Source: a virus
Lineage: Duplodnaviria > Heunggongvirae > Uroviricota > Caudoviricetes
Strand: one strand, 5' to 3'
Length of the DNA: 10,517 bases
Virus record (IMG/VR): IMGVR_UViG_2585427755_000006
Of the stretch, positions 3,343 to 10,517 are shown in pieces. Below the pieces are notes generated by a model that was given only the letters and a program-made list of their open reading frames with translations, was not told the origin of the DNA and did no database searches. The position numbers and the translations under genes are program-made. Position 1 is the first letter of the stretch, and every line of letters begins with the position of its first letter.

Positions 3343-3849
3343 TTAGTCTGCCAAGTCTTCCTCAGTCACAACTGGGTAATTCCAAATATCAAAAAAAGCT
3401 ATAGCCTCCTGCCATTTGTTCCATAAATTATCAAGTACTTGTGTAGGTTCCGTACTTTTAAAAACAGAATCAGCCGCATCACCGTTATGAACTTCCTCGT
3501 ACAGTTCCATTATTAGCAGATTAACAAAGTACTGTTTCAACATTAATGCCTGATTACCTTCTTTCTGCTGGCTATCCTGCTTGATGATCTCCATCGCCCG
3601 TACCAGGCACCTGATGATATCCGCTGCATCATTAACGCTCCATTCAGATCCGCGCTTATCTGTAGCTGATGTATTGGCTCTCTCAGCGCAAGCCTTTAAA
3701 GACTCATAAAGGTAAACTCTATTTTGTAGCTGCAGCGCTTTTTTTGACGTGTACCAACTTGCAAGCGCCGACCCCGCTGCGGCTAATGTGCCAAACGCAG
3801 AAATGCCTGCTGCTATTGCACTTAAGTCGGCACTGTCAAAGTTCCACAT
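3343..3849 (-). CDS. Hypothetical 168-aa protein with a single predicted N-terminal transmembrane helix (AIAAGISAFGTLAAAGSALASWY) and an acidic C-terminal domain; no recognised family
   Basis: Clean ORF with ATG at 3847-3849 and AAGGTG RBS. Looks lower in GC than the flanking nin genes (by eye). Sits where K-12 DLP12 has ybcL/ybcM. Confidence 0.7.
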   Translation of the reverse strand: MWNFDSADLSAIAAGISAFGTLAAAGSALASWYTSKKALQLQNRVYLYESLKACAERANTSATDKRGSEWSVNDAADIIRCLVRAMEIIKQDSQQKEGNQALMLKQYFVNLLIMELYEEVHNGDAADSVFKSTEPTQVLDNLWNKWQEAIAFFDIWNYPVVTEEDLAD

Positions 3850-6706: not shown

Positions 6707-7009
6707 TCATTGTGTACCCATTGATGTTCTTTTATATACCCTCAATACCCGTTTCATCGCGGCACTCTGGCGACACTCCTTAAAAATCAGATTCGTGCTC
6801 ACCTTTCCTTCCCGTTCTTCTCTGGTAGCGAACCGGTAATACACCGTTCGCCAGACCTTACCATCAACGACCAGGATTCCTGCCCGCGCCATTTTAGCCG
6901 CAGCCTGATTTATGCTGGTTACGGTTGCGCCTGTTACCGCGGCAACGTCCTGTGCACAGAAGCTCTTATGCGTCCCCAGGTAATGAATAATTGCCTCTTT
7001 GCCCGTCAT
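6707..7009 (-). CDS. renD: Lambda Ren-like protein (100 aa)
   Basis: Translation MTGKEAIIHYLGTHKSFCAQDVAAVTGATVTSINQAAAKMARAG... matches recalled lambda Ren. ATG overlaps an upstream in-frame stop (ATGA), as at the lambda P/ren junction. Confidence 0.8.
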   Translation of the reverse strand: MTGKEAIIHYLGTHKSFCAQDVAAVTGATVTSINQAAAKMARAGILVVDGKVWRTVYYRFATREEREGKVSTNLIFKECRQSAAMKRVLRVYKRTSMGTQ

Positions 7010-7104
7010 ACACTTGCTCCTTTCAGTCCGAACTTAGCTTTAATTTCTGCGATCTTCGCCAGAGCCTGTGCACGATTTAGAGGTTTAGGCGCAATCACTT
7101 TCGT
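7006..7104 (-). pseudogene. Probable 3' remnant of replication gene P (last ~32 codons)
   Basis: Minus-strand frame open from 7104 to the stop at 7006-7008, translating ...TKVIAPKPLNRAQALAKIAEIKAKFGLKGASV*. No start codon; an in-frame TAG sits at 7105-7107. Assignment to P is from the lambda P-ren gene order and coupling, not from a verified match. Confidence 0.4.
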
Positions 7105-7213
7105 CTACTCCGTTACAAAGCGAGGCTGGGTATTTCCCGGCCTTTCTGTAATCCGAAATCCCCTGAAAGCACAGCGGCTGGCTGAGGAGATAAATAATAA
7201 ATGGGGGGGCTGT

Positions 7214-7405
7214 ATGCACAAAGCATCTACCGTTAAGTTAAGAACGAGTATCGAGATGGCACATAGCCTCGCTCAAATTGGAGTCAGGTTTGTGCCAATA
7301 CCAGTAGAAACAGACGAAGAATTTCACACGTTAGCCGCATCCCTTTCACAAAAGCTGGAAATGATGGTGGCGAAAGCAGAAGCAGATGAGAGAGACCAGG
7401 TATGA
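7214..7405 (+). CDS. Small 63-aa protein, lambda exo-xis orf63-like by position and size
   Basis: ATG at 7214 behind a GGGGGGG Shine-Dalgarno. Translation MHKASTVKLRTSIEMAHSLAQIGVRFVPIPVETDEEFHTLAASLSQKLEMMVAKAEADERDQV. First in a coupled chain of small genes. Confidence 0.6.
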   Translation: MHKASTVKLRTSIEMAHSLAQIGVRFVPIPVETDEEFHTLAASLSQKLEMMVAKAEADERDQV

Positions 7406-8566: not shown

Positions 8567-9181
8567 ATGAAAAAATCAACACTAATTTTAGGGCTTACGT
8601 TAATTGTCTCATCTCAAATACCATCGGCAATGGCAAAAAATGAATCAAAACTTTGGGTTGTTGTTGATCGAACGGAAAGACATACCTGCCCTTCAAGTAA
8701 ATGTGGAGTGGCTGGGAAACTATTTTTCAGGGAAGGCGTAGATTTTCTAGAAAAAAAAGGTGAATGGGTTCGTATAACTGAGCCATATTCAGCCTCATGT
8801 GTGGGAGGGGAAAGCGAATATATTAAAGAAGGTAATAAATCCTGCACAAGAAAAAACGGAATCGTTAATGGCAAGTTTTCAGAATGGGTTAAACTTAGTG
8901 ATCTTAGCAGTGAAAGGCCATCAGATCCTGCTGAAAATGCGAGCAGAAATGATACCTTAATCAAAGGATCTGATGACTACCGTATATACAAAAAAGAGTT
9001 TTCTTCGGCAGCTAGGAAGTTAATAAGTGAAGGTGTCTGCACGGAGAGCGATTTTAAGGAAGTTGGAGGGTGGATGGCATCAAGCAATAAGGGTGAAAAC
9101 ATCTATTTCACATATTGCGGAGGAATGACGTTGTCGAACAGAATATATCTAGACGTTAAAAGTGGAAAGACTTTTAGATAA
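8567..9181 (+). CDS. Secreted/periplasmic hypothetical protein (204 aa) with cleavable signal peptide and an SH3b-like N-terminal region
   Basis: Signal peptide MKKSTLILGLTLIVSSQIPSAMA with AxA cleavage motif. The stretch LWVVVDRTERHTCPSSKCGVAGKLFFREGVDFLEKKGEWVRI resembles a bacterial SH3 fold. Six cysteines. AAGGAAA RBS. Lies in the AT-rich island. Confidence 0.7.
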   Translation: MKKSTLILGLTLIVSSQIPSAMAKNESKLWVVVDRTERHTCPSSKCGVAGKLFFREGVDFLEKKGEWVRITEPYSASCVGGESEYIKEGNKSCTRKNGIVNGKFSEWVKLSDLSSERPSDPAENASRNDTLIKGSDDYRIYKKEFSSAARKLISEGVCTESDFKEVGGWMASSNKGENIYFTYCGGMTLSNRIYLDVKSGKTFR

Positions 9182-9252
9182 TATGATATTACCAATGACA
9201 GCATTAATTTAATGCCTCCATAGAATTATCTCTAGGAAGTAAGTATAAGAAA

Positions 9253-9289
9253 AGTCCGCACAATGAGCTGCTGCGGGCTTTGTGTTATT
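9253..9289 (+). terminator. Candidate rho-independent terminator after the secreted-protein gene
   Basis: AGTCCGCA (9253-9260) / TGCGGGCT (9272-9279) stem with one G-U pair and an 11-nt loop, followed by TTGTGTTATT. Confidence 0.4.
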
Positions 9290-9474
9290 CGCCATATTTT
9301 ATGAAGCAAATACGACACTATAGATAATTAAGCGTTACTGGTTGTCGATTCCTCACTCATTCCTGCTGATGGCTGTCTTCTTGTATGTGTCATTGAAGGG
9401 TAATATCGCGTAAAAAGATACCGGAAGTATCCGCGCCGCTATGATTGTCTTTCTCCTGATGCAGGAAAAGCAGA

Positions 9475-9813
9475 ATGACTAAATCAGCAGCAGAGCGCAA
9501 AGCCGATCAGAGAGCCAAGCAAGCATCATCCGGTATGCGTAAGCTGGAGCTTGTACTTGATGCTCAGGAAATTGAAATGCTGGAGCGTAACTGAGCCACG
9601 CGCCGCTTCAGGCGTGCGCCTTACGAGTTTGGTGAGTACATAGCGTTACTGAGCCGCCAGGATGATGCACGTGTGCGCTGGCGTATAAAATCGATTAGCA
9701 GAAAACGTTGCCGTAAGTGCGGCGAGAGAGTTCCTGTTAATTCATGCCCGTGTAATGGTGACTCACAATACTGGGTGACCAAAGGCTGGCACGAAACAAA
9801 ATTAATGATATAA
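9475..9813 (+). pseudogene. 112-codon reading frame interrupted by one in-frame TGA (9592-9594): 39-aa N-terminal part plus 72-aa C-terminal part with a zinc-ribbon motif
   Basis: ATG at 9475 gives MTKSAAERKADQRAKQASSGMRKLELVLDAQEIEMLERN, then TGA, then the same frame continues ATRRFRRAPYEFGEYIALLSRQDDARVRWRIKSISRKRCRKCGERVPVNSCPCNGDSQYWVTKGWHETKLMI*. No ATG in the second part; an internal GTG at 9673 is the only alternative start. Confidence 0.45.
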
Positions 9814-9841
9814 ATCTCTGTGACATGTCACGGAGGCGGCA

Positions 9842-10270
9842 ATGAAATTAGACCAGCAATATCTAAAAGATCTACTTATCGCATTCGAAAAAACTTATGG
9901 CCCTGACACGATGCTTAGTGAACTAGAGGATAATGGCTTTAATAGATATGACCAAAATTTTATTTTCCATATGCGATTATTATGTGACTACGAATTAATA
10001 GTTAGGGTTGATGGAAAACCTGGGTTCGGTCATATAATGTCCAACGAGTTAGGGGAAGGTGTTGAATATAGTTGGCTCGAAGTACCACTGAGGTTGACAG
10101 CAAGAGGGCATGATTTTATTGCTGACTTACGTCAAAAGGAGGTCTGGCAAGCTATAAAAACAAACTTTAAGGATGAGGGAATTGGTACTCTTATGAGTGT
10201 TTCAAAATCACTAGCAAAAGGCTTTGCAAGAAAAAAAATAAAAGATATTACAGGAATAGATATTGAATAA
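9842..10270 (+). CDS. Hypothetical 142-aa protein, prophage cargo, no confirmed family
   Basis: ATG at 9842 with GGAGG RBS (cacGGAGGcggcaATG). Clean AT-rich ORF ending 36 bp before the IS911-like terminus. Confidence 0.7.
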   Translation: MKLDQQYLKDLLIAFEKTYGPDTMLSELEDNGFNRYDQNFIFHMRLLCDYELIVRVDGKPGFGHIMSNELGEGVEYSWLEVPLRLTARGHDFIADLRQKEVWQAIKTNFKDEGIGTLMSVSKSLAKGFARKKIKDITGIDIE

Positions 10271-10306
10271 TTCTTAGCATAAAGCAACTACTGCCTTTGG
10301 TGAAAA

Positions 10307-10517
10307 TGAAGTGGTTTACTGAATTTGGCCACCTGAACAGAGGTGATATGCTCACCTCAGAACAACACAGGTGCCATAATGAAAAAAAGAAATTTCAGCG
10401 CAGAGTTTAAACGCGAATCCGCTCAACTGGTCGTTGACCAGAATTACACCGTGGCAGATGCAGCCAGCGCTATGGATGTCGGCCTTTCCACAATGACGCG
10501 ATGGGTGAAACAATTAC
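10307..10517 (+). mobile_element. Left end of an IS3-family insertion sequence closely related to IS911 (partial, runs off the window)
   Basis: Terminus TGAAGTGGTTTACTGAATTTGGCCACC resembles the IS911 left inverted repeat TGAAGTGGTCAACAAAAACTGGCCACC, followed by an IS911-type orfA. Confidence 0.8.
10379..10517 (+). CDS. IS3-family transposase OrfA (IS911 InsN-like), N-terminal 46 codons only
   Basis: Translation [46 protein letters not shown] matches recalled IS911 OrfA apart from a few substitutions. AGGTG RBS. Confidence 0.85.

Follow-up and report, generated by a model that had tools for sequence, protein, structure and literature searches.

The interrupted frame and its prophage

The window analysed here, which means the whole stretch of 10,517 nucleotides, is a grounded DLP12/lambda-like prophage of E. 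coli. The prophage genes quuD, rusA, ybcO, ninE, ybcN, ybcK, emrE and ren were recognised in it, and its ea22-like gene is truncated. The left end (positions 1-1330) is occupied by an IS2 element, in which the ORF at 415-1317 matched IS2 TnpB with an E value of 3e-213. At about 7006-7241, a fragment of lambda replication gene P on the minus strand, lacking its N-terminus, meets a frameshifted DUF1317 gene on the plus strand in a head-to-head fusion. This junction implies the loss of the whole stretch that carried immunity and the early promoters, with O, cII, cro, cI, N, pL, pR and exo/bet. Near the right end, an IS3-like ISEc52 element starts at about 10308 and continues to 10517, replacing the small 168-nt ORF, xis and int that strain 1409 carries there.

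The feature under study lies on the plus strand at positions 9475-9813. As the initial annotation had described, a single frame runs from ATG 9475 to the TAA ending at 9813 and is broken only by a TGA at 9592-9594, which is codon 40; its translation comprises 112 codons and the TAA. The translation reads MTKSAAERKADQRAKQASSGMRKLELVLDAQEIEMLERN up to the TGA and ATRRFRRAPYEFGEYIALLSRQDDARVRWRIKSISRKRCRKCGERVPVNSCPCNGDSQYWVTKGWHETKLMI from there to the terminal stop TAA. The part downstream of the TGA had been described as free of ATG, which is not the case: codon 111 (9805-9807) is an ATG, two codons before the end. Two residual ORFs were present on the plus strand in the ORF list. The first (9475-9594) has 39 codons and covers the basic N-terminus and the first predicted helix pair. 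The second (9673-9813) has 46 codons and starts at an in-frame GTG, which is Val67 of the intact protein. It has the zinc-ribbon-like Cys cluster, assigned from family conservation to 9709-9771 on the plus strand. The cluster is composed of C79 (9709-9711), C82 (9718-9720), C91 (9745-9747), C93 (9751-9753) and position 99, which is Tyr in the window (TAC, 9769-9771) and Cys in the family.

Two intact ORFs flank the frame. An intact 204-aa ORF with a signal-peptide-like N-terminus is found at 8567-9181; it matched phrog_8310 with an E value of 7e-135 and SH3_3 weakly. An intact DUF2513 protein of 142 aa (phrog_585) is encoded at 9842-10270. Directly ahead of the interrupted frame, positions 9332-9440 on the plus strand hold what is left of a umuD/humD-like S24 peptidase gene. 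This remnant contains an internal TAA and was recognised by its matches to genes annotated as 'S24 family peptidase / HumD'. At the same place in sister strains, PGAP lists a 'DNA repair protein, incomplete', and the umuD-like ORF in phage Chlobot reads LLVVDSSITPVDGSLLVCAIEGEYRVKRY. The remnant is longer (246 nt) as annotated in two prophage copies located at torI/dsdC (L105 and L106).

A promoter-like sequence within this remnant had been taken as a sign that the locus was once expressed. The two hexamers, TTCTTG (9378-9383) and TAATAT (9401-9406), are present with the 17-nt spacer. However, the conclusion drawn from them is unsupported, as they lie inside the umuD-like remnant and agree with the sigma-70 consensus at only 6/12 positions, 2/6 in the first hexamer and 4/6 in the second, and a promoter scan of 9100-10400 returned 0 sites against 3.6 expected in shuffles. 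In intact phages of the same type, the gene would by analogy be read within the leftward early operon, because in Chlobot it has the same orientation as exo, bet, xis and int. The promoter region of this operon is deleted in the window prophage.

The protein family

An uninterrupted gene of 339 bp is present in other strains (WP_001129691/692/736). The intact homologue matched phrog_536 ('transcriptional regulator') with an E value of 1.5e-54 over profile positions 2-114 of 115. Salmonella phage epsilon15 gp49, Escherichia phage N15 gp46, a homologue from phiV10 and E. coli WP_001129691/WP_001129736 are members of this family, and epsilon15 gp49 is the last early-operon gene, ahead of the terminator. 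The family comprised 720 proteins in a word-indexed search and 211 clusters at 50% identity in a full HMM search. The window frame was 85.7% identical to the intact C25 protein across residues 1-112 by tblastn. Since this identity of the conceptual translation extends over all 112 residues, the frame is far beyond chance.

The window copy is of the same length as the PHROG 536 members, among them epsilon15 gp49, N15 gp46 and the phiV10 homologue, and is collinear with them over 112 codons. It shares with them the cysteines C79-x2-C82 ... C91 and, at the N-terminus, the AKSAAERKA-QRA motif. It differs from them in the interruption at codon 40 and in Tyr in place of the conserved Cys99. Its position is also different. 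The window copy adjoins the xis/int region of a lambda-like remnant, whereas most intact copies are the last gene of the early operon and are followed directly by the small terminase gene. In E. coli WGI31CT (L102, 1488-3390), the 204-aa ORF, the umuD remnant and an internally deleted copy of the gene are located directly upstream of the small terminase gene, an arrangement which joins the two genomic contexts of the family.

Among 88 diverse representatives, C79 is conserved in 84, C82 in 80, C91 in 72 and C99 in 81. These four residues support a zinc-ribbon-like C-terminus of the intact protein. The zinc-ribbon assignment made earlier for the window is therefore reasonable in terms of the wider family, whose conserved set is C79/C82/C91/C99, but the window allele keeps three of the four and has Tyr99. 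Family members have an uninterrupted ORF of about 105-115 codons. Because the window has a TGA at codon 40, its locus is a pseudogene derived from the family rather than a functional member. This status is already known from public annotation. Identical DNA in NZ_CP063369 is labelled by PGAP as 'hypothetical protein, internal stop' and as a pseudogene, and the same call was found in RefSeq for the copies in ATCC 8739 and in four other strains examined.

The 'transcriptional regulator' label of the family is a database annotation only. The intact family (PHROG 536) is widespread in enterobacterial phages, yet searches of Pfam and NCBIfam returned no family model matching the intact protein, and a sequence-profile search of the PDB with it gave no match. 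Two AlphaFold2 runs gave low-confidence models with a mean pLDDT of 63.8 and 69.3, in which helices were predicted at residues 5-19, 30-43, 52-76 and 100-108. Foldseek of the AlphaFold2 model against the PDB found no match at an E value of 0.001 or better. A ribbon-helix-helix fold of the N-terminal half (residues ~22-65) was considered and rejected, since a comparison of the family profile with Arc, Mnt and CopG by hhalign gave a probability of 0.02. A literature search on the function of gp49 or gp46 retrieved nothing relevant, and no experimental role of any member appeared in the searchable literature.

Codon 40 among homologues and genomes

Homologues were compared at position 9592, as the initial annotation had proposed, and they show TGT (Cys). 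TGT stands at codon 40 in the intact alleles of C25, 45E, E1V33, L099-L101, L132 and phage Chlobot, and in the DNA alignments TGT against TGA is the sole difference at codon 40 between the intact and the window-type alleles. Since all intact homologues examined have TGT there, the TGA at 9592-9594 is a single T-to-A nonsense mutation of an ancestral Cys codon. The TGT codon is also found in close intact alleles that share the genomic context: the intact sister allele has the same gene order (204-aa ORF, umuD remnant, intact gene, DUF2513, small ORF, xis, int and ybhC). It occurs in the isolated lambdoid phage Chlobot as well. In the deposited Chlobot sequence (PP925838, L107), the region 3501-3839 carries a 46-aa 'transcriptional regulator' from an internal GTG and an overlapping, out-of-frame 'UmuD-like protein'. 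Cys40 is kept in 125 of 125 close family members. Among the 88 representatives of the wider family, it is found in 55; in a third of this family the residue is Arg, Ala or Met, with Arg in 13 of the representatives.

The distribution of the two alleles was determined in complete E. coli genomes and in IMG/VR. The TGA version was counted with a 40-nt query, in which the only possible 28-mer seed spans the TGA, and was found in 64 of 5426 complete genomes and in 19 IMG/VR contigs. The sister TGT 28-mer, which has CGT at codon 43 and was searched with a query carrying the flanks of the sister allele, was found in 80 of the 5426 genomes and in 21 IMG/VR contigs. The two states thus coexist in the population. 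A sequencing or assembly error at 9592-9594 is an a priori possibility only, and it is refuted by these counts of TGA and TGT in genomes and contigs. The 64 complete genomes with the TGA were assembled independently of one another, the TGA recurs in the 19 IMG/VR contigs and stands on at least 10 haplotypes, and the probability left for an error is practically negligible.

The TGA alleles appear to go back to one mutation. All of them carry the synonymous codon CGC at codon 43 (9601-9603, plus strand), which is 9 nt away and linked to the TGA in the variable-site table, whereas the TGT alleles have CGT. A TGT version carrying CGC at codon 43 was found in 0 of the 5426 complete E. coli genomes. 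This linkage suggests a single origin of the TGA alleles. The TGA allele was seen on at least 10 DNA haplotypes, in two prophage contexts and in the 64 complete genomes. Of the suggestion of a 'recent nonsense mutation', the nonsense mutation is well supported by TGT in the homologues, but 'recent' needs to be qualified in view of this spread. The TGA allele, together with the umuD remnant and DUF2513, is also present at 2396-2734 in E. coli 13C1065T and AST215 (L105 and L106), where the prophage is a different one that adjoins torI and dsdC (a KplE1/CPS-53-like site). Its presence in that prophage too implies that the module was transferred from one prophage to another by recombination once the nonsense mutation had arisen.

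Stops in other copies of the gene are few. In a tblastn search over 99 fetched loci, 93 of the 99 matches were without a stop. The six exceptions are the window, its identical copy (L001), ATCC 8739, Xenorhabdus indica, Escherichia sp. E1V33 and Citrobacter braakii (L007). The apparent stop of Xenorhabdus indica would be independent, the copy of E1V33 is C-terminally truncated, and the stop symbol of Citrobacter braakii was taken to mark where the ORF ends naturally. The Xenorhabdus indica copy (L011, 3001-3324) has its in-frame stop one codon past the conserved Cys40 (…RNC*LRR…).

The constraint on the frame was estimated by the Nei-Gojobori method. The pN/pS value is 0.12-0.25 between intact lineages (E. 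coli C25, Citrobacter and Pantoea) and about 1 among TGA haplotypes, although the counts behind the latter are small (2 synonymous and 7-9 nonsynonymous) and partly confounded by recombination between alleles. For the individual TGA haplotypes, A versus B gave 0.97, A versus C gave 1.1-1.2, and B versus C showed 3-4 nonsynonymous and 0 synonymous differences. The pooled TGA alleles have 10 nonsynonymous and 2 synonymous differences, compared with 34:44 in an intact comparison (Fisher p = 0.013). The frame 3' of the TGA is still open in 24 of 24 TGA alleles examined; an open downstream frame is also expected under neutrality at a divergence of a few per cent over 72 codons. R80 and Y99 of the window were considered as decay after the stop and rejected, since both are present in alleles without the TGA (P0008 and L143).

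Further lesions were found in the xis/int-proximal sublineage. They are independent: an extra frameshift on a TGA background (L128), a stop at Cys79 (L134), a frameshift near codon 78 (L137) and an internal deletion (L102). The C-terminus is replaced from codon 105 in E1V33 (L006), L139, L141, L145 and L150. Because several independent lesions occurred in this sublineage, the interrupted gene is, on the sequences compared, evidently dispensable in the xis/int-proximal setting. These independent lesions are more telling evidence of decay than the small, recombination-affected pN/pS counts.

Readings of the in-frame TGA

The frame could hold two separate genes, one for the 39-aa N-terminal peptide and one for a 46-aa zinc-ribbon peptide starting at GTG 9673. 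Both ORFs are real entries of the ORF list, and an AGGA (9659-9662) is visible in the sequence 10 nt ahead of the GTG. Moreover, each fragment has been called as a protein in automated annotations, namely phrog_34005, P0290 (39 aa), P0204 and the Chlobot record. However, the homologues have neither a two-gene layout nor a conserved stop; they carry one 112-aa ORF, in agreement with the 93 stop-free matches among 99. The GTG is Val67 and the AGGA is part of the Gln-Asp codons of the intact protein, and since the AGGA is present in intact alleles as well, it is not evidence of a start. The 46-aa 'gene' of Chlobot sits inside an intact 112-aa ORF. In addition, the C-terminal piece in the window is without the fourth conserved Cys (Y99), and pN/pS gives no sign of selection on the fragments. 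The suggestion of two small proteins is thus unsupported, and the chance that it is right is very small.

The automated calls themselves can be accounted for. The 46-aa annotation of Chlobot looks like an artefact, since the full 112-aa ORF is intact there. The phrog_34005 profile covers residues 1-40 of the intact protein with its 40 positions. Given this length and the 39-aa ORF P0290 called elsewhere, the profile may have been built from truncated N-terminal ORFs of the same kind.

One point against a pseudogene is the place of the stop. The TGA falls exactly on a Cys codon, which is, by analogy, the pattern of selenoprotein genes. A full-length protein would still be made if the UGA were decoded at a useful level, either as Trp by read-through or as selenocysteine with the help of SelB and a hairpin further downstream. 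The codon replaced by the UGA encodes Cys in all members of the close family, which is the classic pairing of Sec and Cys, and an in-frame UGA aligned with the Cys of homologues, as used to recognise selenoproteins, is what the alignment contains. Two overlapping, mutually exclusive hairpins can form 3' of the TGA at 9599-9621 on the plus strand, one from CGCGCC/GGCGTG (9599-9616) and one from AGGC-GTGC-GCCT (9610-9621). The latter is a 4-bp hairpin with the loop GUGC, 19 nt downstream of the UGA, and, like the fdhF hairpin of E. coli, it has G and U at positions 23-24. Bacterial SECIS elements have been described by a loop of 3-9 nt, a G in the first two loop positions, a spacing of 16-37 nt and an energy not above –7.5 kcal/mol (PMC13188914). 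The window structure formally fits this description with its loop GUGC 19 nt past the UGA and an energy of –13.4 kcal/mol, as do 97% of shuffled sequences.

The structural evidence is not discriminating. In a constrained-fold screen, the positive control fdhF passed and the window passed, but 97% of the shuffles passed too, and 72% of them fold at least as well. The fdhF-like mini-hairpin with G/U at 23-24 occurs at 1.8% of arbitrary positions, and the pattern was defined after the sequence had been seen. It is a by-product of conserved Arg-Ala-Pro codons, is present in TGT alleles too and is overlapped by the more stable competing hairpin. The minimum-free-energy fold of 9589-9660 (–23.7 kcal/mol, z = –0.84) is not unusual, and Rfam, with the SECIS models included, gave no match at E values up to 10. 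The hairpin is not maintained, either. The loop G is lost in 13 of 24 TGA alleles through R47H (CGT to CAT). A UGA conserved jointly with its SECIS and with purifying selection downstream was not found, as these 13 losses, the pN/pS of about 1 and the second lesion in L128 indicate. Cys40 is unlikely to be a catalytic, redox or metal-binding residue, because it is not conserved in the wider family, where Arg, Ala and Met occur.

The comparison with the E. coli selenoprotein genes leads to the same picture. Like fdhF, fdnG and fdoG, the window has an in-frame UGA aligned with the Cys of homologues, and the hairpin of its allele has G and U at 23-24. Unlike those genes, it shows no conserved or statistically distinguishable SECIS, it is under relaxed constraint, and the Cys that was replaced varies in the wider family. 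The upper stem of the fdhF SECIS carries a bulged U, and this feature is absent from the window hairpin. A phage suppressor tRNA was considered and rejected, since a tRNA gene search of the window found none. A UGA with a G after it is not known to be an especially leaky context in E. coli. The read-through proposal is unsupported, and we regard decoding of the UGA as selenocysteine or Trp as highly improbable. More specifically, if SelB accepted the G23 U24 hairpin of the type A haplotype, to which the window belongs, some ribosomes would insert selenocysteine and restore the full-length protein; this is less probable still. Were it true, the locus would be an accidental, newly born selenoprotein gene of a prophage. 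Low-level read-through with Trp would have a similar effect, but with Trp at a conserved Cys position.

The locus is, with a probability of about 0.93, an ordinary nonsense pseudogene in a decaying prophage. Under this reading, the ancestral gene would have been an accessory early gene of enterobacterial phages, encoding 112 aa with a basic, helical N-terminal half and a four-Cys, zinc-ribbon-like C-terminal half. It would have been carried beside xis/int of a lambda-like prophage, together with the umuD-like remnant and the DUF2513 gene. In one allele of this sublineage, a single T-to-A transversion then changed codon 40 from TGT (Cys) to TGA. Translation from ATG 9475 would yield 39 residues and stop within the second predicted helix (30-43), and the 39-aa product would be without the third helix and the Cys cluster. 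Judged from the predicted helices, this fragment is probably non-functional. By descent and by recombination, the TGA allele would subsequently have become widespread and diverse among the prophages of E. coli. The data demonstrate the stop and its TGT ancestor, the polymorphism, the relaxed constraint, the further lesions and the degraded prophage around the gene. We infer that both fragments are without function and that expression of the locus is low or absent.

The interrupted gene has much in common with other prophage pseudogenes flagged by PGAP. Identical DNA is tagged with 'internal stop', and the surrounding prophage contains several more pseudogenes. Compared with PGAP-flagged prophage pseudogenes that have a single stop, nothing material differs, and the locus is unusual only in its spread to 64 genomes and in its coexistence with an intact sister allele. 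The pseudogene and also fragments of an intact copy, as in Chlobot, have been annotated as separate 'proteins' of 39-46 aa, and a spurious PHROG (34005) may stem from them. The finding matters little, as the locus represents routine gene decay in a grounded lambdoid prophage.
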